Source: Candidatus Rokuibacteriota bacterium (lineage in GTDB: Bacteria; Methylomirabilota; Methylomirabilia; Rokubacteriales; CSP1-6). From it: a stretch of DNA of 64,000 nt. The position numbers were made by a program, and so were the translations under genes. Shown here piece by piece: positions 1,860 to 38,808 of this stretch (position 1 is the first letter of the stretch; each line of letters opens with the position of its first letter). The stretch covers positions 4,152-68,151 of the forward strand of contig DAIRVP010000002.1 of assembly GCA_036802765.1 (NCBI GenBank), read 5' to 3'. The notes below the pieces were generated by a model, which saw only the letters and a program-made list of their open reading frames with translations, was not told the origin of the DNA and did no database searches.

Positions 1860-3311
1860 ATGACTGATAAGGTCGAGCGTACGCATCCCGAGCGTTTCTT
1901 CTCCGACCGGTTCAACGTCACGCCCGGCCTCATGGAACGGCTGCTCGGCAGTAACCTCGCGGGCCGCGTCGACGACGCCGACATTTACCTCGAGTACCGT
2001 GTCAATGAGGAGCTGGTACTAGAGGAAAACGTTGTAAAAAAAGCGTCGCGCCATGTGAGCCAGGGCGCCGGGGTCCGCGCGCAGTCGGGAACGCGCACCG
2101 GTTACGCGCACACCGACGACCTCGCTCTGCACAATCTCGAGGAGGCGGCGCGTCAGGCGCGCGCCATCGCCGATCGCTCGGGGAAATCGGGCATCGTCGC
2201 GGTGCCCGGGCGCGGTCGGCCGCACGACCTCTATGCGCTCGCCGAGGCGCCCATCGTCACCGACCTGGCGCGCAAGCTGGACTTGCTGCGGAAGATCGAC
2301 GCGGCGTGCCGCGCGGCCGACCCGCGTGTTGTACAGGTGATCGTGTCGCTCACGAGCGAGGAAGTGGTGATGCTCATCGCCACGGCGTCCGGCTGGACCG
2401 TGGGCGACGTTCGACCGCTCACCCGGCTGAACGTAACAGTGATCGCCGAAGAGGCCGGCAAGCGTGAGATCGGCGGCTTCGGCGGCGGCGGGCGCGTCGC
2501 GTTCGATTTCTATCTCGAGGCCGAGCGCTGGAGGCGCTTCGCCGTCGAGGCCGCGCGACAGGCAACGCTCAAGCTCTCTGCCGTCGACGCGCCCGCGGGA
2601 GCGATGACGGTCGTGCTCGGCCCAGGCTGGCCCGGCATCCTGCTCCACGAAGCGATCGGGCACGGTCTGGAGGGCGATTTTAACCGCAAAGGCGTCTCGG
2701 CGTTCGCCGGACGCGTCGGTCAGAAGGTGGCCTCCGAGCTCGTCACCGTCGTTGATGACGGCACGATCGTCAATCGTCGAGGCTCGCTCAACGTCGACGA
2801 CGAGGGCACGCCGACGCGTCGCAACGTGCTCATCGAGAATGGCATCCTGCGCGGCTACATGCAGGACCGCCTCAACGCGCGGCTCATGGGTGAATCGGCC
2901 ACGGGCAACGGACGGCGCGAGTCGTACGCGCATCCGCCGCTGCCGCGGATGACGAACACGTTCATGCTCGCGGGACAGGACGACCCGGCCGACATCCTGC
3001 GCTCGGTGAAGCACGGCCTCTACGCGGTGAACTTCGGCGGCGGCCAGGTCGACATCACGAGCGGCAAGTTCGTGTTCTCCGCGAGCGAGGCCTATCTGAT
3101 CGAGGACGGCCGGGTGACGAAGCCGGTGAAGGGCGCAACGCTGATCGGCAACGGCCCTGATGCCCTCACGCGGGTCAGTCGCGTGGGGCATGACCTGGCG
3201 CTCGACGAAGGAGTCGGCACCTGCGGCAAAGACGGCCAATCGGTGCCCGTCGGCGTCGGCTTGCCGACGATCCGCCTCGACGGGATGACGGTCGGCGGGA
3301 CTGCGGTGTGA
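1860..3311 (+). CDS. tldD: metalloprotease TldD
   Basis: 483 aa with the HEAIGHGLEGDFNRKG metal-binding motif and a canonical TldD C-terminal GxC region. Directly followed by pmbA with a 4-nt overlap. Confidence 0.9.
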   Translation: MTDKVERTHPERFFSDRFNVTPGLMERLLGSNLAGRVDDADIYLEYRVNEELVLEENVVKKASRHVSQGAGVRAQSGTRTGYAHTDDLALHNLEEAARQARAIADRSGKSGIVAVPGRGRPHDLYALAEAPIVTDLARKLDLLRKIDAACRAADPRVVQVIVSLTSEEVVMLIATASGWTVGDVRPLTRLNVTVIAEEAGKREIGGFGGGGRVAFDFYLEAERWRRFAVEAARQATLKLSAVDAPAGAMTVVLGPGWPGILLHEAIGHGLEGDFNRKGVSAFAGRVGQKVASELVTVVDDGTIVNRRGSLNVDDEGTPTRRNVLIENGILRGYMQDRLNARLMGESATGNGRRESYAHPPLPRMTNTFMLAGQDDPADILRSVKHGLYAVNFGGGQVDITSGKFVFSASEAYLIEDGRVTKPVKGATLIGNGPDALTRVSRVGHDLALDEGVGTCGKDGQSVPVGVGLPTIRLDGMTVGGTAV

Positions 3312-4654
3312 CCGAGCTCGACGCCACGCTGCTGACCGACGTGCTCAAGCGCGCGACGGCGCGTGGTGCGACCGCCGCCGACGGCTTCCTCATCGAAGAG
3401 CAGTCCTTCAGCGCTTCCGTGCGCCTCGGGCAGGTCGACACGGTGACGCACTCGCGCGAGCAACGGCTGGCGCTGCGTGTGTTTGCCGGCCGCGCGTCCG
3501 CGGCCGCATCGACGTCCGACCTCTCGCGCGATTCGCTCGAGCGCGTCGTCGACGAGGCTACTGCTCTGGCGCGGGTGACCTCCGAAGATCTCCATGCGGG
3601 CCTGCCCGAAGCGCAGGAGCTGATCGAGCGCGTGCCCGACCTCGAGCTCGAGGATCACGAGGGGTCCGAGCTCACGCCGGAGGAGAAGATCGAGCTGGCG
3701 CGACGCGCCGAGGCGGCGGCGCTCGCGGCCGATCCGCGCATCACGAATTCGGAAGGCGCGGAATACTTCGATCGGCGCGCGCGTTACGCGTACGCGACCT
3801 CGCACGGCTTTGCACGCGGCTACAGCACCTCGTCGTTCGGGCTTACCGTCTCGCCGGTGGCATCGAAGGATGGCGAGATGCAGCGCGACGCATGGTACAC
3901 GTACGCGCGGCGCCGGCGCGCGCTCGAGGATGCCGAGTCGGTCGGCAAAACGGCCGCGGCGCGCGCGCTGCGCCGCCTCGGCGCGCGCAAGGTGAAGACC
4001 GCCGAGGTGCCGGTGATCTTCGATCCCGACATGGCGGCCAGCCTGCTGCGCTCGATCGCCGGCGCTGCCAGTGGCCCGAGCCTCTATCGGCGCGCCTCGT
4101 TTCTGTTCGAGCGTCTCGGTACACGCATCGCGGCGCCGACGGTGACCATCGTGGATGACGGCCTCGTTCCGGGCGCCCTCGGCTCGCGGCCGTTCGACGG
4201 CGAGGGGCTGGCGACGCGACGCACGGTGCTGGTCGGCGAGGGGAAGCTCGAGTCGTACCTGTTGGACACGTACTCGGGCCGCAAGCTAGGCCTGCCCTCG
4301 ACGCACCATGCGACGCGCGACGGCGCCGGGGTGTCGGTGGGAACGAACAACCTCATGCTGCTGACGGGTTCCGCGTCGCCCCAAGACCTCATCGGGTCAG
4401 TGAAGAGCGGCCTGTACGTCACCGAGCTCATCGGCTTCGGCATCAACGGCGTCACCGGCGACTATTCGCGCGGCGCGGCGGGGTTGTGGATCGAGGACGG
4501 TCAGCTCGCGTTCCCGGTCGAGGAGGTGACGGTCGCGGGGAACCTGCTCGAGATGTTCGAGCGGATCGATGGGATCGGCAACGATCTCGTGCTGCGCGAT
4601 CGCGTGGCGTCACCGACGCTGAAGATCGCGCGGATGGTTGTGGCGGGCGAGTAG
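3308..4654 (+). CDS. pmbA: metalloprotease PmbA/TldE
   Basis: 448 aa PmbA-like sequence lacking HExxH. Translationally coupled to tldD. Confidence 0.85.
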   Translation: MTELDATLLTDVLKRATARGATAADGFLIEEQSFSASVRLGQVDTVTHSREQRLALRVFAGRASAAASTSDLSRDSLERVVDEATALARVTSEDLHAGLPEAQELIERVPDLELEDHEGSELTPEEKIELARRAEAAALAADPRITNSEGAEYFDRRARYAYATSHGFARGYSTSSFGLTVSPVASKDGEMQRDAWYTYARRRRALEDAESVGKTAAARALRRLGARKVKTAEVPVIFDPDMAASLLRSIAGAASGPSLYRRASFLFERLGTRIAAPTVTIVDDGLVPGALGSRPFDGEGLATRRTVLVGEGKLESYLLDTYSGRKLGLPSTHHATRDGAGVSVGTNNLMLLTGSASPQDLIGSVKSGLYVTELIGFGINGVTGDYSRGAAGLWIEDGQLAFPVEEVTVAGNLLEMFERIDGIGNDLVLRDRVASPTLKIARMVVAGE

Positions 4655-9710: not shown

Positions 9711-12046
9711 AGACACTGGCCGCGCGCATTCTTGTTGTCGAGGACAACGCCGACACTGCCGCGCTGCTGCGCGACCTCCTCGAGGGCGAGGGGTACGACG
9801 TCGAGACGGCGGCCACCGGCGAAGCCGCGTTCGAGGCGCTCGCAGTGGCGCCGGACGTCGACCTCATGGTCCTCGATCTCATGCTGCCCGGCATGAGCGG
9901 CTACGAGGTCATCGAGCGGCTTCGTGTTCAGGCCGACCTGTCCGATCTGCCGATCCTTGTGTTGAGCGCGCTCGGCAGCGCCTCCGCGCGTGTGCGAGGC
10001 CTGCGCGAGGGCGCCGACGATTACATGACGAAGCCGTTCCTGCCGGAGGAGATCGTCGCCCGCGCGCGCACGCTGGTCACGCGGCGTCTCCTTGCGCGGC
10101 GCACGGGAGAGCTGGAAGCGTTGAGCCGCATCGCGCAGGCGGCGCTCACCGCGCCCAACCCGGAACTGTTGCTGTTTCGCCTCGTCGAGATCGTGGTCGA
10201 GGTTTTCAATGCCGACGTCGCGGTCATCTACATGCTCGACGAAGCGCGCGCCGAGCTGCGGCCGCGCGCGGCGGTCGGCCTGCCGCCGGGCGTTGAGCCC
10301 GCGCCGATTCCGGTCGGCGTCGGCGCGGTGGCCACGGCGATGTCCACGCGCGAGCCCGTGCTGATCTCGGATGGCGCCGCCGGCGCTGGCGAGCCGCTGA
10401 CGCGTCGCGAGGCGTTCCGTTCGCTGATGGTGGCGCCGCTCGTCGTGGCGGGCTCACCGATCGGCGTGCTCGAAGTCGCGTGCCGCTCGCGGCGATTGGG
10501 GGGGCGCGCCGACAGGCTGTTGCGTATCGTCGCCGATCGGGCCGCGGTGGCTATCGAGCACGCGCGCCTGGAGAACGAGGCGCGCGAGCTGGCCGACGTC
10601 GTGCGGCGCATCGGCGAAGGCGTGGTCGTTGCCGACGGCGACGACAGGATCGTCTTCGCGAACCGCGCCTTCCACGAAATGATCGGCGGTGGCGAATCGC
10701 TCGTGGGCGTGCGATGGACCGACTTTCTCGCCGGAGCCCAAGACGTTCCCGCGCTCACCGCGCAGATGCGCGGGCCCTCGTTCCAGGGCGAGGTGCTGCT
10801 GCTCACGCGCGCCGGCGACCCGCGCCCGGTGCTCGCCACGTTGTCGACGGCCGAGCGGCACGACGGCGGCGGCGTCCAGCGCATCGGCGTGTTCCGCGAC
10901 ATCTCTCGCGAGCACGAGCTCCGCTTCCGCGTCATCCGCGAGCAGAAGTTCCGTACGCTCGGCTCGCTGGCCGCCGGGGTGGCACACAACATCAACAATC
11001 GCCTCACGCCGGTCCTGGGCTGGACGGAGATGCTGCAGGAGCGCTTGAGCGCCGACGAGGCGATCACCGGCCAGGAGCTCAAGCACGCGCTCAACGTCAT
11101 CCACCAGGGCGCGTCCGACAGCGTGGAGACCGTGCGACGGCTTCAGGAGTACTCGCGTCCGGCGCGCGTGAAGGGCCCGGAGGCCGTCCAGCTTCGTGAC
11201 GTGCTGGAGCAGCTGCTGGCGCTCACGCGGCCGCAGTGGGACAACGAAGCGGCACGCCGCGGCATTCGGTACGAGATCGATTTCAAGGCGGATCCCGCGC
11301 CGGCCGTGCTGGCCGTCGCCAGTGAGGTGCGCGAGGCGCTGCTGAACATCCTTGAGAACGCGCTCACTGCGATGCCTCAGGGCGGACGTCTCACGCTCTA
11401 CGTCCGCGGCCAGGACGATCGCGCCATCGTATCGATCTCCGATACGGGCAAGGGGATGAGTCCCGAGGTGCAGCGGCTCGCGTTCGAGCCGTTCTTCACC
11501 ACGCGCAGCACCGAAGGCGGCACGGGACTCGGGCTGAGCCTCGCCCAGGAAATCGTGCAGCGGTACCGCGGTACCGTCGCACTCGCGAGCGCCGAAGGCG
11601 TCGGCACGACGTTCACGCTGTCGTTCCCGTCGATCACGGCGGAGGCGGCGCGCACGCCGGCGTTCTTGCCGACGCTGGAACCGCTGCGCATCCTGGCCGT
11701 CGAGGACGAGCCGGAGGTGCTCGACGTGCTGCGCGCCATGCTCAGCAACGCCGGCCACACGGTCTTCACGGCGGCGTCAGGACGCGAGGCGCTCGAGCTG
11801 TTCGACCGCGAGCCGGTGGATCTCGTGCTGACCGATCTCGGGATGCCCGGCATGACCGGGCTTGCGCTTGCGGAGGAGCTGAAGCGCCGGCGCGCGATCC
11901 CCGTGGTGCTTCTGACCGGCTGGGCCGACGAGTTCGACGCGAGCACGGCGCCTGCGGTCGATCTCGTGGTGCCGAAGCCCTTCACGCGCGAGCGCCTGTT
12001 CGAGGCCCTGGCACGGACGCTGCCCGATCGCGTCCGGCCGGGCTGA
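9707..12046 (+). CDS. multidomain hybrid sensor kinase/response regulator (REC - GAF - PAS - HisKA - HATPase - REC)
   Basis: ATGA overlap with the upstream kinase. N-terminal receiver (ILVVEDNADT...DLMLPGMSGYEV), a GAF-like middle region, an H-box (AAGVAHNINNRLTPVLG), an ATPase domain (GTGLGLSLAQEIV) and a second receiver. Confidence 0.85.
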   Translation: MKTLAARILVVEDNADTAALLRDLLEGEGYDVETAATGEAAFEALAVAPDVDLMVLDLMLPGMSGYEVIERLRVQADLSDLPILVLSALGSASARVRGLREGADDYMTKPFLPEEIVARARTLVTRRLLARRTGELEALSRIAQAALTAPNPELLLFRLVEIVVEVFNADVAVIYMLDEARAELRPRAAVGLPPGVEPAPIPVGVGAVATAMSTREPVLISDGAAGAGEPLTRREAFRSLMVAPLVVAGSPIGVLEVACRSRRLGGRADRLLRIVADRAAVAIEHARLENEARELADVVRRIGEGVVVADGDDRIVFANRAFHEMIGGGESLVGVRWTDFLAGAQDVPALTAQMRGPSFQGEVLLLTRAGDPRPVLATLSTAERHDGGGVQRIGVFRDISREHELRFRVIREQKFRTLGSLAAGVAHNINNRLTPVLGWTEMLQERLSADEAITGQELKHALNVIHQGASDSVETVRRLQEYSRPARVKGPEAVQLRDVLEQLLALTRPQWDNEAARRGIRYEIDFKADPAPAVLAVASEVREALLNILENALTAMPQGGRLTLYVRGQDDRAIVSISDTGKGMSPEVQRLAFEPFFTTRSTEGGTGLGLSLAQEIVQRYRGTVALASAEGVGTTFTLSFPSITAEAARTPAFLPTLEPLRILAVEDEPEVLDVLRAMLSNAGHTVFTAASGREALELFDREPVDLVLTDLGMPGMTGLALAEELKRRRAIPVVLLTGWADEFDASTAPAVDLVVPKPFTRERLFEALARTLPDRVRPG

Positions 12047-27875: not shown

Positions 27876-28790
27876 CTACTTGGGGTCGAGACGACGCAAC
27901 TCGGCGACGATGGCCGCCGTCGCCTGATCGGTGGCCAGATGCGCCTCCCAGGCGGACTCGGGCACCCCCAGGATCTCGCGGATCGCGACGATCGCCTCCG
28001 CGGGCTTGGGCGCCTTGCCGTGCCATTCGGGATTGTTCTCCATGAACGAGACACCCTTGCCCTTGATCGTGTGCGCGACCACCAGCGTCGGCGCTCCACG
28101 GGTCGCTTCGGCCTGATCGAGGGCTTTGGCAATCTGCCCCATATCGTGCCCGTCGACCTCGATGACGGGCCAGCCGAACGCCTGCCACTTGCCGATAACC
28201 GGCTCGAGATCGAGGATCTTGGCGCAGAAATCGTCGAGCTGGATCTTGTTGTAGTCCACGATGACCGTGAGGTTGTCGACCGGATGGTGCGGCTGTCCGA
28301 GCTTGGGCGCCGACATGGCGGCCTCCCAAACCTGTCCTTCCTGAATCTCGCCGTCGCCGAGCACGCAGTAGACGCGCGATGGCCAACCCGCGAGCTTCGC
28401 GCCGAGCGCGAGCCCCAGCGCCACCGAGAGGCCCTGACCGAGCGAGCCGGTGGCCGCCTCGATACCGGAAAGGGCGACGCGATCAGGATGTCCCTGCAGC
28501 GGCGAGCCGAGCTTGCGCAGGGTGATGAGCGCGTCTTCGGAGAAGTAGCCGGCCGTCGCCATCGCGCAGTAGAGCGCCGGCACCGCGTGGCCCTTGCTCA
28601 AGACGATCCGGTCGCGCTCCGGCCACTCAGGACGGCTCGGATCATGGCGGAGCCGGCCGAACATGATTGCGACGAGCACGTCGATCACAGACAGCGAGCC
28701 GCCCGGATGACCGGAGCCCGCATGGGTGAGCATCCGAATGATCTGCACTCGACAGGCTCGGGTAATGGCCTCCAGACGCGCGTCAGCCAT
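27876..28790 (-). CDS. transketolase, N-terminal (TPP-binding) subunit
   Basis: HAGSGHPGGSLS TPP-binding motif and a GDGEIQEGQVWEA motif. Confidence 0.85.
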   Translation of the reverse strand: MADARLEAITRACRVQIIRMLTHAGSGHPGGSLSVIDVLVAIMFGRLRHDPSRPEWPERDRIVLSKGHAVPALYCAMATAGYFSEDALITLRKLGSPLQGHPDRVALSGIEAATGSLGQGLSVALGLALGAKLAGWPSRVYCVLGDGEIQEGQVWEAAMSAPKLGQPHHPVDNLTVIVDYNKIQLDDFCAKILDLEPVIGKWQAFGWPVIEVDGHDMGQIAKALDQAEATRGAPTLVVAHTIKGKGVSFMENNPEWHGKAPKPAEAIVAIREILGVPESAWEAHLATDQATAAIVAELRRLDPK

Positions 28791-30345
28791 CGACTCCCTC
28801 CGCGTGAGCGATCGCATCGATATGGACGCCGCTGACCGCGATCTCGGGGGCGTACACGACCTCATCCGCCGCCCACACGATCGTGCCCTTGACGTCTTTG
28901 GTGACGCCGACGACGTTGTTGAGGAACGTGGTGATGTTGTCGTTGATGCGGATCGTGTTCGCCTTGATCGGCTCCGCGATCCGGCCGTCGCGAATCATAT
29001 AGGAATCCGCGGTGACCGTACAGGTGAAATCACCCGCGCGGAGCCCGTTGATGGGGTACGTGTACCAGATGCGTCCGATGTAGAGCCCGTTGCCGACGCG
29101 GCGCAGCAGCTCGTCGCGGCTCACGGGGTCGGCGCCCTCGACGACGACGTTGGTGGCCGCCACCGAGGGGCGGTTCGCAAACTGCCGTCCGCCACCGGCA
29201 CCGAAGCGAAAGCCATTGCGCGGAACGAGGGCGGCCGCCCGCGCCGCGTCGCTGTCTCCGCCGAGCTTTGCCGTGCGCTGCGGATCGCGCAGCAGCCGCT
29301 GCGTGTCGTACCAGCACGACAGGCAGCCGGTGAGGACGCCGTCGCGAATCAGGTCGGTGCGCCCCGTGGGCAAGCCCTCACAGGTGATGCCTTTGGAGCC
29401 CATCATCGTCGGCATGGCGCCATGGTCGTAGATCGACAGCGCGGCCGACGCCACGCGAGCGCCGAGACGTCCGAGAAACGGGGACGCCGAAGCGTAGAAC
29501 GTGTCGGCGGTGCAGGCGGGAATGATCAGATCGTTGAGGATGTCGGTGACCGGCTGACGACCGAACACCACGGTGTAGCGGCCGGATGGCACGCGCACGC
29601 CGCCGACGGCGGCGATGGCGGCCTGCGCGGCTTCGCCGCCCGCCTCGTCGGTGAAATCGTCGAGTCGCGTTCCGGTGGACCAGCCGGAACCCTTCGCCGC
29701 ATGGGCCTCGACCATGGACGTCACGAACGCGGTGACCAGCGTCGACTCGTCGGTCTGCACGCGGGGCATTGCCGTGGAGGCGATCGCCATGCGCTCTTGA
29801 AGAATGGTCACGTCGCCGCCGATGATGAGTCCCAGCCGGCGCAGCGCTTCCTCGCTGTTCGCCAGCTCGGCCAATCGCGAGGACGCGAGGAACGTCCGCA
29901 GCGCGCCGCCCACGATGGTCCAGCCGGCCTCGACCAGGCGCTCGTCGCTCACGCGCATGAGCGACGGATCGTGGTAGTCGGCCAGCGTGCGCGGCGTGGC
30001 CAGCGGGCGTGGCAGCGAGACGAAATCGGGATCGGCGACGGCCGCGCGCCGCGCCTTGTCGAACGCGCGCTCGATTCCGGCGAGCGAGAGGTCGTTCGGC
30101 TCGCTGCCGAAGCCGAGGCGGGGGCCGCCCGGCGCGTCGAACACGATCTGGAGCCCGAGGCCGTACGACTCCACAGACTTGGGCTCCTCGACGCCGTTGC
30201 AGGGGATGTGCGAGGTGTAATTGAGCCGCGTGAGCAGCGCAGCGTTCGCGGAGACGAAGGCCTCCACCTCGTTGACGCCCGCCTGCGCGCGGGCCCACTG
30301 CAACGCCTGCTCGGCGGCGCGCGTCAGCTCGGCGAGATCGCGCAC
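28783..30345 (-). CDS. TldE/PmbA-like metallopeptidase-family protein (second paralog pair)
   Basis: TldD/PmbA fold without HExxH. GTG start at 30345 (VRDLAEL...) lies 2 nt after the rhodanese stop. The upstream in-frame extension is probably not translated. Confidence 0.7.
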   Translation of the reverse strand: MRDLAELTRAAEQALQWARAQAGVNEVEAFVSANAALLTRLNYTSHIPCNGVEEPKSVESYGLGLQIVFDAPGGPRLGFGSEPNDLSLAGIERAFDKARRAAVADPDFVSLPRPLATPRTLADYHDPSLMRVSDERLVEAGWTIVGGALRTFLASSRLAELANSEEALRRLGLIIGGDVTILQERMAIASTAMPRVQTDESTLVTAFVTSMVEAHAAKGSGWSTGTRLDDFTDEAGGEAAQAAIAAVGGVRVPSGRYTVVFGRQPVTDILNDLIIPACTADTFYASASPFLGRLGARVASAALSIYDHGAMPTMMGSKGITCEGLPTGRTDLIRDGVLTGCLSCWYDTQRLLRDPQRTAKLGGDSDAARAAALVPRNGFRFGAGGGRQFANRPSVAATNVVVEGADPVSRDELLRRVGNGLYIGRIWYTYPINGLRAGDFTCTVTADSYMIRDGRIAEPIKANTIRINDNITTFLNNVVGVTKDVKGTIVWAADEVVYAPEIAVSGVHIDAIAHAEGVDG

Positions 30346-30346
30346 G

Positions 30347-30769
30347 TCAGTGCTTGGGGTCGTTGCTGACGTTCGTGCCCTGCACCGGATAGCCCTTCGC
30401 GTGCCAGCCCGGCAGGCCTTCTTCGAGCACCCGCTGGTTCCGCCATCCGAGCGCGTACAAGACGTTGCTGGCCCCACGGGACAGCGCGTGCGGACACGTT
30501 CAGTAGAAGACGACGAGCCCGGTCTTGCTGATCTCCGGCGCGCGCCGCTCGACGCTCCGCAGCGGCATCGAGCGCGCGCCCTTGATGTGCATCTCGACGT
30601 ACGCGTCCCAGTTCCGCACGTCGATGATGTCCGCCTTCTCCCCCCGATCGAGCGCGGCCTTGAACTCGTCGACCTTGATGAAGTTGACCGGAGCGTCCGG
30701 CGGTGCGGCGGGCGCGGCCCCGATCAGCACGATGGCCGCCGCGAGCGCCGGGATCATTGCGCGCCGCAT
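30347..30769 (-). CDS. secreted single-domain rhodanese with in-frame TGA at the catalytic Cys position (candidate selenoprotein)
   Basis: Signal peptide, then a rhodanese fold (...TGLVVFY-[TGA]-TCPHALSRG...LPGWHAKGYPV). The TGA falls on the ORF-track boundary at 30500-30502. The frame continues in the same phase to a real stop at 30347. Confidence 0.5.
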
Positions 30770-30772
30770 CGG

Positions 30773-32335
30773 TCAGCCTCCGAGCACGCGCGCGCGACTG
30801 CGCATGGTGGGGCCGCCGTTGCCGAGCTTCTTGCTCTGCATCGGCTGTCCCTTGCCGCAGTTGGGAATCGGATAGAGGCGGAAGTCGCGTCCGACGGCGT
30901 CGACGTTCATCAGATAGTCGCGCGTGTCGGCGGCGATGCCGCCGTTTCGATAGAGCCGCGTGACCTCACCGCGCTCGATCGCGTATACCTTGCGCGCGGA
31001 GATGCGGAAGTTCTCGCGGCTCTCGGCGATCGACGGGATGCGGTGGCCGACCAGGTAAAAGCCGTGGTCGACGTCGCCGATGATGCGCGCCGGGTCGTCG
31101 TTGCCGCCGTCGAAGACGGTGTTCGACATACGGATCAACGGCACGAGGGCGGCGCTGGTCGCCTTGAAGTGGCCGTTCGGCTCGCCGCCGAAGACGGCAG
31201 CCGTCTGGCGGCTGTTCATGAAGCCGCGAAAGATGCCGCGCTCGATGTGCGTCACCCGCCGCGCCGGCGTGCCCTCGTGATCGTAGGCGTAATGACCGTA
31301 ACCGGGCAGGGCGGGGTCCGAGTAAGCGGTCACCAGCGGGGAGGCGATCCGACGCCCGACCTGGTGGGCGTCGAGATCCCCGAGCAGCCACGAGCGGCCG
31401 GCGTACGCCGTTTCCATCTTGAGCGCGCGGTCGAGCTCGGCCGGGTGGCCGACGATCTCGTGCGAGACAAGCGTGTTGTAGTGCGGGTCGGTGACGACGA
31501 CGACCTCGCGGTCGGACGTTGGCAGCGTGGGAGCCTGGGCCAGCTCGGCGGCGTCGCGCGCCAGCGCCAGCGCGAACTCGCGGAAGGGCGGGAAGGTGAG
31601 CAGCGGCTCGGCCACGCCCACGCCGATGACCTCCCAGCCACGCTGATGGCCCATGACGTCGTAGATCTCCTGGCTCGTTTCCGGCCCCACGGCAACGACC
31701 GAAGCCGCGCCCTGCGTGAGGGCAAAGCCCTGATCGATGAGCGCACCCTCCGTCGAGGCGAACAGCTCGCGTGTGAGCTGGGTCAGCAGCGGCACCCAGT
31801 TGTAACGCACGCTCGGCTGCGCCGCAGCGATCGCGCGCGAGACGTCGGTCGCCACCGCAACCATTTCCGCCAGCGTCACGCTCCGCGGATCGATCCGATA
31901 GACGGCGGGCACGACGTCGCGTCGTACGTCGACAGCATGCAGCTGCAAGTCGGCGAGCGCGTCGCCGAGCGGCCCGAACTTCTCGCGCGCCGTCGCCTTG
32001 TGCTCGGCGTTGGCCATCGCCCGCCGGTATGCGCGCTCGAGCGCCTCGATCAGTCGCTGCTCGAGCTCGTTGACCTCCGCGGCGCCGAGCACGATGCCGA
32101 TCCATCCGGGCGCGACCGCGCGGTCGCCGGCCAGCACGCGGACGCCGGCCGTGCACATGTAGTCGTCGCCGGACGAACGCTCGGCGCCGTTCTCCGCGAT
32201 CGCGTAGCGAGCCTCGGTCACTTCGAGCCTCAGGTCGGCGTACGCGAGGTGCGGCAAGCGGCGCCGTGCATCGGCGAGGATCGTCGGCACGCTCGTGCGT
32301 GCGCGATCGATGAGATCGACGGTCAGCGTCGTCAT
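30773..32335 (-). CDS. TldD-like zinc metallopeptidase (second paralog pair)
   Basis: HEIVGHPAELD zinc motif and a C-terminal NCGKGQ motif. The ATG overlaps the moeA stop. Confidence 0.8.
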   Translation of the reverse strand: MTTLTVDLIDRARTSVPTILADARRRLPHLAYADLRLEVTEARYAIAENGAERSSGDDYMCTAGVRVLAGDRAVAPGWIGIVLGAAEVNELEQRLIEALERAYRRAMANAEHKATAREKFGPLGDALADLQLHAVDVRRDVVPAVYRIDPRSVTLAEMVAVATDVSRAIAAAQPSVRYNWVPLLTQLTRELFASTEGALIDQGFALTQGAASVVAVGPETSQEIYDVMGHQRGWEVIGVGVAEPLLTFPPFREFALALARDAAELAQAPTLPTSDREVVVVTDPHYNTLVSHEIVGHPAELDRALKMETAYAGRSWLLGDLDAHQVGRRIASPLVTAYSDPALPGYGHYAYDHEGTPARRVTHIERGIFRGFMNSRQTAAVFGGEPNGHFKATSAALVPLIRMSNTVFDGGNDDPARIIGDVDHGFYLVGHRIPSIAESRENFRISARKVYAIERGEVTRLYRNGGIAADTRDYLMNVDAVGRDFRLYPIPNCGKGQPMQSKKLGNGGPTMRSRARVLGG

Positions 32336-35938: not shown

Positions 35939-37852
35939 TCAGAACAGGCTCAGCTGCGGCGATTCCGGCTCGTCGTCGACATACGCCACGAGGCCATCCT
36001 GCTCGGTGAAGCGACGAAACCGCTCCCACGTCTCGAGCACCTTCGACTGGTAGTACTCCACGTTCTCGTCCGGCCGCGCGGCATCCCAGAGGCTCGCCAG
36101 CTTCGCGACGTCGCTGACGGCCACGCGCGCCGTGCGGCCCGCGACATAGTAGGAGATCTGATCGCCCGGCTGCACCGGACGTCCGCTCGCCGCGGCGAGC
36201 TCGTAGGCTGCAGACACCGGCCGCAGTCCGGCTGCGACGCGCTCGCGATAGACCTCAAGTGATTCTTGAAGTGTCTCGCTGCGCGCGAAGACGCGCACGT
36301 CGAGCCGATGCGCGGCGAAGTCCGCGAGCCAACGGTCGACCACGGCCTTGGCGTCGGCGCGACGCCCGAGCAGGAGCAACCGGACCAGCTCGTCGATCAG
36401 CCTGCGCTGGAAGGGCTCCAGCCCACGCGAGCGGAAGGCCGAGCCCTTGAGCGTCACACGTCCGCGCGCATCGAGCAGCGCGTACGTCTTCATCTTGTAC
36501 GAGAACATCGCCGGATAGCGCCCGTCGAGTTCGAGCGTGATGCCGGGCGGCAGCTTGTCGGTCAGCGCTTCGAGCAATCGCCGGTCGTCCGCGACGGTGT
36601 GGCTGGACGCCGGTGTGAAGTACACGCCGTCCGTGTCGGCCTCGATCGGCGTGGCACCAAGCGCACGCAGGCCATCGACGACGGACGTCACCACGGCGCG
36701 GCCGTCGGCGGTGACGCGATTGGCGGCGTCGAAGTCGTTCCAGTGGGCGGAAGAAAAACCGAGATATCCGTAGAACGAGTTGATGAGAATCTTGAACGAC
36801 TGCGACAGCGCCAGGTGGTGCTGGCGCTCCTCGTCGACCACGGCCGCCTGCGCCTGACGCTTGGCGGTCACCCGCACGTCACGCAGGTGAGTCAGCAGAT
36901 CCAGAAAGACGCCGAGCTCGTCGCTCGCGGGCGCGACGCGACCGGCGATCATCAGCGACGGATAGAGCGACGTGACGTCGACGTGGAGCACCGGCGCCGC
37001 CACGCCCTGCTGCCAGACCGCGGTGAGTCCGCCGCCGACCGACTGCCCCGGGCGTGGTCGCGGCACGGCGCGGCCGACTCGGAGGTACTCGCGCAGCAGC
37101 AGCGCATCGACCTTGGCGGCGGAGCCGCGCAGCGTGGTGGCCTGGTAGTCGAACGGCACGAGCTGCGCCTGGGCGAAGTAGGGCGGCGACAGGATCGCCG
37201 AAATCGCGAGCGTCTCCGCGGCGTCGTCGCCCGCGTACGCCATGAGCCGGTCGGCGTCCTCGGCGAGCTGGCGGGCAACATTCGAGGCGTCGACGTAGGT
37301 GCGGTCCGCGGCGGCGACGCCGAGATGTCGCGCGATGTCCTTGAGGCCGAACGAGGGGAGGTCGCGTGCGCCGACATCGTGCAGCTGGGCAAGCATCCAC
37401 GTGTCGATGATGTGACGGCCGGCGACCTCATACCGGCGAAACCCGATCGCCCGCTCGGCGACTTGCAGTCGCGCCGGCCGGCTGCGTAACAGGCTGCCGT
37501 CGCGACCCCACGCGAGCCGCACATCGTGTCGCCGCGCACGCGCCTCGAGATACTCGAGGTCGAAGCGGAAGATGTTGTGGCCTTCGATGACGTCCGGATC
37601 GCGCTCGCCGATCAGACGTCCGCATTCGGCCAGCAGCGTCGGCTCGTCGAGTCGATCGCCGCGGAGCACGTGACGAAACCCCGTCGAGTCCGCGAGGGCG
37701 ATCGCGACGATGCGATCCCCGGGACGGGCCGCGGATGGGAATTCATAGCCGTCGGTCGTCACGACCTCGATGTCCAGCGCGAGACGTCGAAGATCGCCGA
37801 AGTGCAGTGTGCCGAAGGAGGTGCGCCCGGTGGTGAGCAGATACTGGTGCAC
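35939..37852 (-). CDS. family-B DNA polymerase, short form (exonuclease + polymerase core, no N-terminal domain)
   Basis: Exo I DIE at residue 27, motif A DVTSLYPSL, motif B KILINSFYGYLG and motif C ADTDGVY. 637 aa. Confidence 0.8.
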   Translation of the reverse strand: MHQYLLTTGRTSFGTLHFGDLRRLALDIEVVTTDGYEFPSAARPGDRIVAIALADSTGFRHVLRGDRLDEPTLLAECGRLIGERDPDVIEGHNIFRFDLEYLEARARRHDVRLAWGRDGSLLRSRPARLQVAERAIGFRRYEVAGRHIIDTWMLAQLHDVGARDLPSFGLKDIARHLGVAAADRTYVDASNVARQLAEDADRLMAYAGDDAAETLAISAILSPPYFAQAQLVPFDYQATTLRGSAAKVDALLLREYLRVGRAVPRPRPGQSVGGGLTAVWQQGVAAPVLHVDVTSLYPSLMIAGRVAPASDELGVFLDLLTHLRDVRVTAKRQAQAAVVDEERQHHLALSQSFKILINSFYGYLGFSSAHWNDFDAANRVTADGRAVVTSVVDGLRALGATPIEADTDGVYFTPASSHTVADDRRLLEALTDKLPPGITLELDGRYPAMFSYKMKTYALLDARGRVTLKGSAFRSRGLEPFQRRLIDELVRLLLLGRRADAKAVVDRWLADFAAHRLDVRVFARSETLQESLEVYRERVAAGLRPVSAAYELAAASGRPVQPGDQISYYVAGRTARVAVSDVAKLASLWDAARPDENVEYYQSKVLETWERFRRFTEQDGLVAYVDDEPESPQLSLF

Positions 37853-38196
37853 GGGATCCGGAAAGAAGCGGTATGGCGCCTCGGGCGCGTTGGCTGGCAG
37901 TCCGGTCGTCTCGCGGCAGCGCTCGCGTGCCGCGAGCGCCGCGCTCCAGGAGACGAAGCGCGCGAGCCAGCACAGGCCGCCCCCGCCCGCCAGGCGCGTC
38001 GTCGCGACGAGCCCCGCGGCGCCGCTGAACAGCGCGTCGTCGGCGGCCAGCAGGAAGGGTGTGAAGGCAACATGCTCGACCCGCGTGGCGGCCGCCTCGC
38101 GGAGCCAGAGGCGGATGGTGCGGCCGTCCTCGGCCAGGGCGGCGGCGACGAGCCCCGGTGTGGGGTCGGCGCCGAACAGCAGCGGTGTCGAGACGC

Positions 38197-38808
38197 TCAG
38201 CCGGCGGCTTCCTCGACGGCGGCGCGGTACGTCGCGGCGTCGACGAGGCCCACGAGTGAGCGCCCGGACTGGGGCAGGATGACCGCCGGGATCGCCCGCA
38301 CGCCATCGGCCACCGCCGCCTCGTAATCCTTCACGACGGCCTCGCGGCCCACGCCGGCCTCGAGATCGGCGGTGTATCGCGCCATATCGACGCCGGCGTC
38401 GGCGACGATGTCGGCGACGACGCGCGGGTCGGCGATGTTCAGGCTTTTCGTGAAGTACGCCTCGTAGAGCCGCGGATGCACGCGCTCGAACAGCTCGTCA
38501 CCCTGCCGCGCCACACACTTGGCCGCCTCCAGCGCGGGCATGCTCCAGTTGGGCATCGTCGGGTGGGGCCACGGCGTGAATGCGATGCCGTCGTCGGCGG
38601 ACATCGCGTGGCAGCGCTGCCATCCTGCCTCGCGATACGTGCCCTTGAACGGCACCGGCGGCACCGGGGTCGGACGCAACGGAAACGCGCGATGCTCGAT
38701 CACGAGCGAAGAGCCGCGAGCCTCTTGCAAGCGCCGGAGGCGGACCGCCGCCGGATAGCACCACGGTCAGAGATAGTCGCTGTAGAGGACGAGTCGGACG
38801 TCGGCCAT
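38197..38808 (-). CDS. DsbA/FrnE-like thiol-disulfide oxidoreductase with in-frame TGA replacing the first Cys of CxxC (candidate selenoprotein, U-P-W-C)
   Basis: The ATG at 38808 gives MADVRLVLYSDYL-[TGA 38767-38769]-PWCYPAAVRLRRL..., in frame with the ORF 38197..38730. The alignment logic matches FrnE IEIWSDFVCPFCYIGKRRL. Confidence 0.55.
38734..38754 (-). promoter_or_regulatory. candidate SECIS-like hairpin 12 nt downstream of the UGA in the DsbA-like gene
   Basis: mRNA CCGGCGGCGGUCCGCCUCCGG forms a CCGG/CCGG plus GGC/GCC stem with apical loop GGUCC containing GU. The spacing is similar to bacterial SECIS elements, but such hairpins are expected by chance at 70% GC. Confidence 0.25.

Follow-up and report, generated by a model that had tools for sequence, protein, structure and literature searches.

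The window analysed here is a 64-kb stretch (64,000 nucleotides) of contig DAIRVP010000002.1 from a Candidatus Rokuibacteriota bacterium, and our subject is a gene on its minus strand for a small rhodanese whose frame is interrupted by a TGA that we propose to be a selenocysteine (Sec) codon. The open reading frame (30769..30500) starts with the ATG at 30769, reads MRRAMIPALAAAIVLIGAAPAAPPDAPVNF...KTGLVVFY and is terminated by the in-frame TGA at 30502-30500. Past this codon the same frame continues with TCPHALSRGASNVLYALGWRNQRVLEEGLPGWHAKGYPVQGTNVSNDPKH, 50 codons up to the stop TGA at 30349-30347, and the GTG with which the next gene starts (30345) follows after a single base (30346). Read on the minus strand, there is no indel or frameshift between the two halves of the rhodanese, only a clean in-frame TGA. 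The original prediction, made from the letters of the sequence, had the frame ending in TGA at 30500-30502 and running 50 codons further, and both its coordinates and its description were right. The features of the gene are as follows.

30347..30769, minus strand: predicted complete selenoprotein coding sequence of 140 codons, Sec at codon 90, stop TGA at 30347-30349; the product would be a rhodanese of one domain, exported or anchored, and 43 species have it at full length

30500..30502, minus strand: in-frame UGA, read as Sec (U90) at the canonical position of the rhodanese catalytic Cys, from its conservation, TGC orthologs and alignment to 3tp9 and domain 2 of 1yt8

30494..30496, minus strand: codon of Cys92, the invariant second thiol of U-x-C-P (C in all orthologs) and putative resolving residue

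30704..30769, minus strand: N-terminal hydrophobic segment MRRAMIPALAAAIVLIGAAPAA, then the conserved Pro-rich linker APPDAPV, as read from the sequence

30467..30485, minus strand: candidate bacterial selenocysteine insertion sequence (SECIS) hairpin GCUG-U-CCC[GUG]GGG-C-CAGC, within codons +5 to +11 (A-L-S-R-G-A-S)

The part of the gene before the TGA does not encode a whole rhodanese domain. The 89-aa piece covers only positions 2-67 of the Pfam Rhodanese profile, whereas the read-through protein matches PF00581 over profile positions 2-102 of 102 (residues 33-125, 53.4 bits, E 3.7e-14, with a gathering score of 22.2 bits). The missing C-terminal half of the rhodanese was expected after the TGA, and the growth of the profile match from 2-67 to 2-102 of 102 places it there. 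At the N-terminus, two arginines and a hydrophobic stretch of 17 residues are followed by a conserved Pro-rich linker, AAPAAPPDxPV. The segment is modelled with low confidence as a helix (residues 2-16) preceding the rhodanese domain, and it is conserved in homologs. Its likely role is that of a signal peptide or of an N-in membrane anchor, either of which would place the rhodanese domain extracytoplasmically.

The TGA stands where rhodaneses have their catalytic Cys. In phmmer alignments with solved rhodaneses the codon falls on the catalytic Cys of 3tp9 (YCRTGGRS, a CRxGxR-type motif) and on the Cys of NCAGRTRS in domain 2 of 1yt8, which bears out the placement originally proposed. An AlphaFold model of a Cys ortholog (mean predicted local distance difference test score 73.5) has a strand at 85-89, a C-T-C-P turn and a helix at 94-106, so that the strand stops right before residue 90 as in the rhodanese catalytic loop, and in a PDB search with this model the top matches were all rhodanese domains; the PDB searches as a whole had YgaP, PspE and Sud among their matches. 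Comparison with Cys-containing orthologs had been suggested, and TGC orthologs were found in the same gene neighbourhood. Three full-length homologs were available: P0002 with VVFY-C-TCPH, P0034 with VVFY-C-ACPH and P0001 with VVFY-R-TCPN. In the DNA of P0002 (locus L065) and P0034 (locus L066), TGC is found at the codon aligned to the TGA. Both loci have the neighbourhood of the window (TldD-like gene, rhodanese, TldE-like gene, transketolase; in L065 also MoeA upstream), and they are therefore orthologs and not paralogs. The active-site motif is F/L-Y-U-T-C-P-H-A-L, with U-T-C-P in 39 of 42 orthologs and U-[SGA]-C-P in the rest, and the Cys at +2 from the Sec position (Cys92) is invariant in all orthologs.

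The third homolog, P0001, is encoded at L073 (534-605; contig ERZ27250565 k141_1358324), where AGA (Arg) stands at the Sec codon and a perfect 8-bp hairpin is kept. Only a single contig of 836 bp shows this variant, which could stem from recent mutation, from an error in sequencing or from inactivation of the copy.

The interrupted gene is widespread and conserved. An identical 89-aa N-terminal product was found on 19 contigs of independent metagenome assemblies, with like neighbours in each. In a search of 5.8 billion proteins, more than 100 of the best 120 matches were 89-91 aa long and ended in ...VVFY, with identities among these homologs from 94% down to 72%. A scan with one genome per species covered 43 relatives, nearly all labelled Candidatus Rokuibacteriota or Methylomirabilota, and TGA was found at the rhodanese Sec codon in 43/43 species genomes (44/44 Rokubacteria-type sequences). 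That the TGA could be a sequencing or assembly error in a TGC or TGT Cys codon has practically no probability left, since 19 contigs of separate assemblies share one identical sequence and 43 species genomes, from many studies, have the TGA; this reading is refuted, and the original judgement that sequencing error was unlikely stands.

Beyond the TGA, an open frame of 45-50 codons is found in all species but one (L030); in L009 it runs off the contig. Orthologs end at the same point only as database gene calls (89 aa), and their DNA continues in frame. Over codons +12 to +41 after the TGA, the mean pairwise divergence of 42 orthologs at codon positions 1/2/3 was 0.137/0.112/0.421, and upstream of the TGA it was 0.226/0.218/0.366. 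The third-position excess downstream of the TGA therefore indicates purifying selection at the protein level in that part, at least as strong as upstream. If the UGA were a true stop, the gene would be a split or decaying rhodanese leaving an 89-residue fragment, and the 150 nt downstream would be an untranslated leader of the next gene. Such a reading agrees with the public gene calls, which end at 89-91 aa, and with the match of the 89-aa product to the N-terminal half of the Pfam domain. However, it is the downstream part that completes the domain, and a fragment ending at the UGA would have neither the active-site loop nor the C-terminal half of the rhodanese fold. In the downstream part third positions diverge 3-4 times as much as positions 1 and 2, and the TGA is kept in every species with an open frame behind it save for the TAG in L030. 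We consider a true stop very improbable; the rhodanese TGA is neither a sequencing error nor the mark of a pseudogene. TGA is also the stop codon of 42 of the 61 called genes on these contigs, the rhodanese gene's own stop included. As TGA is the main ordinary stop, the recoding is therefore local and the genetic code is not reassigned.

In the exceptional L030 ortholog (metagenome-assembled genome (MAG) CAWBMV01, contig_894, ~10268-10320), a TAG lies 15 codons past the TGA (..SDILY*), at a position where all other species have K, Q or T. Either the assembly is wrong here or the gene has truly become a pseudogene in this genome. Two contigs in the scan carry labels from elsewhere, L013 (DATHGT01, labelled Candidatus Acidoferrum) and L024 (DASPZZ01, labelled Candidatus Binatia). 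They are ~70% identical to the Rokubacteria locus and have its gene order (MoeA, TldD-like, rhodanese, TldE-like), and they are probably mis-binned.

A SECIS search downstream of the TGA, another check proposed at the outset, revealed a conserved SECIS-like hairpin. The hairpin at 30467-30485 consists of 4 pairs, a U-C mismatch, 3 pairs (7 in total) and a 3-nt loop; its stem begins 14 nt and its apical loop (30475-30477) 22 nt after the UGA. It has an energy of -9.8 kcal/mol in context and -8.3 alone, forms part of both the minimum free energy and the centroid structure of the 48 nt starting at the UGA, and prevails in the ensembles predicted for most orthologs. The apical loop is G-U-G in the window and G-G-G in other species. 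In the bacterial SECIS (bSECIS) model the loop has 3-9 nt and starts with G followed by G or U, the UGA-to-loop distance is 16-37 nt and the energy is at most -7.5 kcal/mol (PMC13188914), and the rhodanese hairpin agrees with it in loop size, loop sequence, spacing and energy. A window-wide scan returned seven in-frame TGAs with coding-like composition on either side, and among these a SECIS-type hairpin below -7.5 kcal/mol occurred only at the rhodanese TGA (-9.8); one further site had a weak stem of -5.1 kcal/mol.

The codons that form the stem are frozen at their synonymous positions. Synonymous entropy was 0.17 or less at stem codons +6 CTG, +7 TCC, +9 GGG, +10 GCC and +11 AGC, against 0.28-1.8 at the 52 other four- or six-fold degenerate codons (Mann-Whitney p = 1.3e-4). 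The sole free third position, at +8 (CGG/CGT), is the middle base of the loop and agrees with the G[G/U] of the model. Two compensatory changes were seen, C-G to U-A in L042 and G-C to C-G in L073, the latter through synonymous CTG to CTC together with GCC to GCG. The divergent L068 has lost the lower stem and retains the upper five pairs and the GGG loop. Of the Cys orthologs, L065 is without the hairpin (0 kcal/mol) and L066 has a remnant of -5.2 kcal/mol in another register; the constraint on the hairpin is relaxed in the Cys orthologs.

Two other ways of drawing the element were tried and dropped. A 6-bp hairpin counting U-C as a pair was replaced by the layout of 4 bp, mismatch and 3 bp, as 24 of 44 sequences are mismatched there. 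A helix proposed by RNAalifold (alignment columns 17-25 with 34-41) was rejected as the main element: its variation is of the wobble-compatible kind only, it has a low predicted probability in most orthologs, it is absent behind the second UGA described next, and it leaves the frozen third positions 30, 33, 42 and 45 unexplained.

A second case of TGA at a Cys position, in a DsbA-like gene, had been claimed on the same contig, and it proved real, 8.3 kb away and with a conserved TGA.

38200..38808, minus strand: DsbA-like gene with a UxxC motif, UGA at 38767-38769 and a hairpin at 38734-38754; the candidate second selenoprotein gene on the contig

The gene reads MADVRLVLYSDYL-TGA-PWCY... (SDYL-TGA-PWC), with the TGA at 38769-38767, and UxxC DsbA-like proteins are a catalogued selenoprotein family (PMC13188914). 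Its TGA missed the composition filters of the window-wide scan. Behind it lies the hairpin CCGG-C-GGCG[GUC]CGCC-U-CCGG (38754-38734; -12.7 kcal/mol, z -2.1), in which 4 pairs, a pyrimidine-pyrimidine mismatch and 4 more pairs lead up to a G-U-C triloop that starts 21 nt from the UGA. Across nine Rokubacteria species the TGA is kept and the 21-nt hairpin changes at a single loop base, in L016, while the adjacent codons vary synonymously. The DsbA-like selenoprotein (form 1, UxxC) and the rhodanese thus share the organism and the design of the putative recoding signal (4 bp, pyrimidine mismatch, 3-4 bp, G-U-N triloop), with a UGA-to-loop spacing of 21 nt against 22 nt in the rhodanese; they differ in that the DsbA-like protein has an unrelated thioredoxin-like fold and the classic UxxC redox motif. 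Hairpins of the same design at a like distance behind two unrelated redox-Cys UGAs would be the pattern expected of a shared SelB recognition element. The gene callers begin the DsbA-like protein after its TGA (168 aa).

We consider it highly probable, at roughly nine chances in ten, that the TGA at 30500-30502 is a selenocysteine codon decoded through the hairpin at 30467-30485, which would give a 140-residue extracytoplasmic Sec rhodanese. What has been observed is that the UGA is in frame, conserved and placed on the catalytic Cys, that the frame behind it is translated, that some orthologs have Cys, and that the hairpin is constrained, of the bSECIS type and matched in design by one behind a second UGA. 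Our inferences beyond that are SelB dependence, the incorporation of selenium, export of the protein, its substrate and the part of Cys92 as resolver.

Several results weigh against it. A search of the 64-kb window and of ~0.9 Mb of fetched loci turned up no selA, selB, selD or tRNA for Sec; the domain check for SelA, SelB and SelD used gene tables covering most of the window outside 40.7-48.2 kb, and neither the window nor 33 fetched loci gave any tRNA at all with ARAGORN. Covariation is thin, with two compensatory events and with 32 of 500 shuffles reaching the score of the 6-bp core, statistics that are weak because the hairpin is so conserved. RNAalifold favours a different, overlapping helix, the stretches of 86 and 48 nt after the UGA have no extra stability compared with shuffled sequences (z +0.99 and +0.60), and the U-C mismatch sits in the stem of 24/44 sequences, the window included. 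At 70% G+C, only comparative evidence is informative for folding. Rfam at gathering thresholds gave no match in the window; we know of no Rfam family for bacterial SECIS, and because of this the null result says little.

The lack of Sec genes in the window and the fetched loci also speaks for the possibility that the UGA is read through without Sec, a near-cognate tRNA putting in Trp, Cys or Arg and the hairpin being a mere stimulator of read-through. P0001, with Arg at the codon and the hairpin retained, would fit the same explanation. However, the codon coincides exactly with the catalytic Cys and is a Cys codon in orthologs, and such Sec/Cys pairing is a selenoprotein hallmark, whereas Trp or Arg at position 90 would abolish catalysis. 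Moreover, the hairpin agrees with the SelB-type bSECIS model in loop sequence and spacing, one of like design stands behind the UxxC-type UGA in the DsbA-like gene, a member of an established selenoprotein family, and the phylum is reported to be a Sec user. A Methylomirabilota MAG with 63 predicted selenoprotein genes is cited in PMC13188914, and Sec-type group 4 [NiFeSe] hydrogenases have been reported from Methylomirabilota (PMC13582414). Sec machinery in the host genome is backed only indirectly, by this phylum-level literature and by the two UGA genes themselves. It seems to us improbable that the codon is read without Sec.

If the Sec reading is correct, the hairpin at 30467-30485 would act as a bacterial SECIS and recruit SelB carrying Sec-tRNA(Sec) as the ribosome reaches the UGA, so that Sec would be inserted instead of termination and the ribosome would finish the 140-residue protein. 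The hydrophobic N-terminus would export the protein or anchor it outside the cytoplasm. The mature protein would consist of one rhodanese domain with Sec for the catalytic Cys and a Cys two residues on (U-T-C-P-H). Sec90 would be the nucleophile, carrying sulfane sulfur or selenium or attacking a disulfide, and Cys92 would resolve the intermediate through a selenenylsulfide. The chemistry is most likely selenol-based sulfur or selenium transfer or a thiol-oxidoreductase cycle, and the product may be an extracytoplasmic sulfurtransferase or oxidoreductase placed like PspE or Sud.

As was pointed out from the start, prokaryotes have been reported to contain a family of rhodanese selenoproteins (PMC1088965, PMC13188914). 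Its UxxS and UxxG forms were reportedly first described by Zhang & Gladyshev and in the Sargasso Sea survey. Five forms are catalogued in PMC13188914: form 1 UxxS, form 2 UxxG, form 3 (NF041203) CxU, form 4 UxxG and form 5 (the TsoB fusion) UxxxxU. The U-x-C motif is absent from these five, and in the field a different Sec site or motif makes a separate subfamily (PMC9312934). Forms 1, 2 and 4 (PMC1088965) resemble the window protein in having Sec for the catalytic Cys, an in-frame UGA, a coding-region bSECIS and the PF00581 domain. In contrast to their usual C-x-x-G or C-x-x-S loop, the window protein has U-T-C-P-H, which sets it apart by the published motifs, and unlike them it has an invariant Cys at +2 and groups by sequence with CxC-type exported rhodaneses.

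Those exported relatives came from a profile search of 1.8 billion representatives, which returned mostly multi-domain rhodaneses and about a dozen useful single-domain matches. The exported single-domain relatives have LYCACPH, LYCDCP, LYCNCQ and VYCACPH, and the family is therefore a CxC-type exported rhodanese; the same search yielded more 50%-clusters ending in ...VFY. One protein, P0246, has G-N-R where its relatives have C-x-C. For both the window protein and its Cys homologs the best NCBIfam model is NF041203 'rhodanese_LYCAU', a rhodanese-related (seleno)protein, with 46.8 bits for the window protein and 46 to 68.9 bits for the Cys orthologs and other CxC homologs, all far below the cutoff of 115. 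This family (form 3, CxU, in PMC13188914; COG0607 form 2 in PMC9312934) is likewise a small single-domain rhodanese, matched over the whole length, with a two thiol/selenol motif of the Y-C-x-C type at the active site. The difference is in the order, as its Sec comes third (C-A-U) and that of the window protein first (U-T-C), at the canonical catalytic position; this presumed register is read off the NF041203 family name and the LYCAC homologs rather than off an alignment of residues. The TsoB rhodanese/DsbD fusion (NF045694, form 5) is a protein of ~572 aa with a UxxxxU motif and a model cutoff of 805, and the window protein, with 25.4 bits, 140 aa and one Sec, does not match it. PspE of E. 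coli and Sud of Wolinella (a periplasmic polysulfide-sulfur transferase) are also small extracytoplasmic rhodanese domains, with the fold found in our PDB searches. They differ in having a single Cys and no Sec, and on PspE models the window protein scores 22 bits against a cutoff of 102.

Measured against the five forms of PMC13188914, the U-x-C rhodanese looks like a form not yet catalogued, within a selenoprotein type that is known. It is possible that the gene is already among the 63 selenoproteins predicted in the Methylomirabilota MAG. A full-text literature search for 'LYCAU' found no relevant paper, and the deep-Sep paper mentions neither rhodanese nor Methylomirabilota. Somewhat more tentatively, at a little under even odds, we suggest a sixth rhodanese form: extracytoplasmic and CxC-type, with Sec at the catalytic position as a mirror of the C-x-U of LYCAU, fixed across Rokubacteria, and with its translation coupled to that of an atypical TldD/TldE-like pair. 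If so, both positions of the pair would be redox-active and form a selenenylsulfide, and the TldD/TldE-like protease pair may act together with the rhodanese.

Rhodaneses that have Sec in place of the catalytic Cys and a SECIS inside the coding region are a known general type, and the gene neither overturns current understanding nor would surprise specialists. Its value lies elsewhere. In more than 100 of the best 120 matches, NCBI MAG annotations included, the rhodanese of this soil phylum is mis-called as a fragment of 89 residues, and reading the UGA as Sec restores the rhodanese active site. The catalogue of rhodanese selenoproteins would gain a U-x-C form, and U-x-C together with C-x-U would make a natural 'swapped' Sec/Cys pair, handy for the question of nucleophile versus resolver. 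From the two like hairpins on one contig a SECIS template for Rokubacteria may be drawn, and the prediction of selenoproteins in this phylum, reportedly unusually rich in Sec, could gain from it.

The rhodanese gene is sandwiched between two genes of the TldD/TldE type.

30773..32335, minus strand: upstream gene, divergent TldD-like, 520 aa, with a HEIVGH zinc motif (Pfam PmbA_TldD_3rd, 1.2e-36)

28783..30345, minus strand: downstream gene, divergent TldE/PmbA-like, 520 aa, no HExxH (Pfam PmbA_TldD_3rd, 2.8e-38)

The TldD-like gene stops 3 nt ahead of the rhodanese ATG and the GTG of the TldE-like gene follows 1 nt past the rhodanese stop. The TldD-like TGA stop (30773-30775) and the rhodanese ATG are in one frame with one Pro codon between them, which suggests tight translational coupling of the three genes. 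The TldD-like gene lies upstream in 45/45 loci and the TldE-like gene downstream in 41/41 loci with enough flank, with moeA upstream. In the divergent L068 the downstream TldE-like gene is replaced by another gene. Among distant CxC rhodaneses, P0141 (L070) adjoins a Fur-like regulator and P0167 (L071/L072) a CusF-like copper-binding gene, which hints at a metal-related role for the wider CxC rhodanese family. A functional link to TldD/TldE beyond Rokubacteria found no support, as the sandwich is not kept in L068 or around P0141 and P0167. We therefore see in it a matter of phylum-level synteny and an operon, not evidence of shared function.

Elsewhere in the window, a canonical TldD/PmbA pair lies at 1860-3311 and 3308-4654 on the plus strand, with all three Pfam domains recognised in each protein. 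Together with the divergent pair flanking the rhodanese, the organism therefore has at least two TldD/TldE-type pairs. A family B DNA polymerase gene (~35939-38140, minus strand; 2915-4828 in L001 and 2630-4828 in L002) adjoins a gene for an RRM-domain protein, and the called start of the polymerase varies between near-identical contigs, giving 637 or 732 aa.

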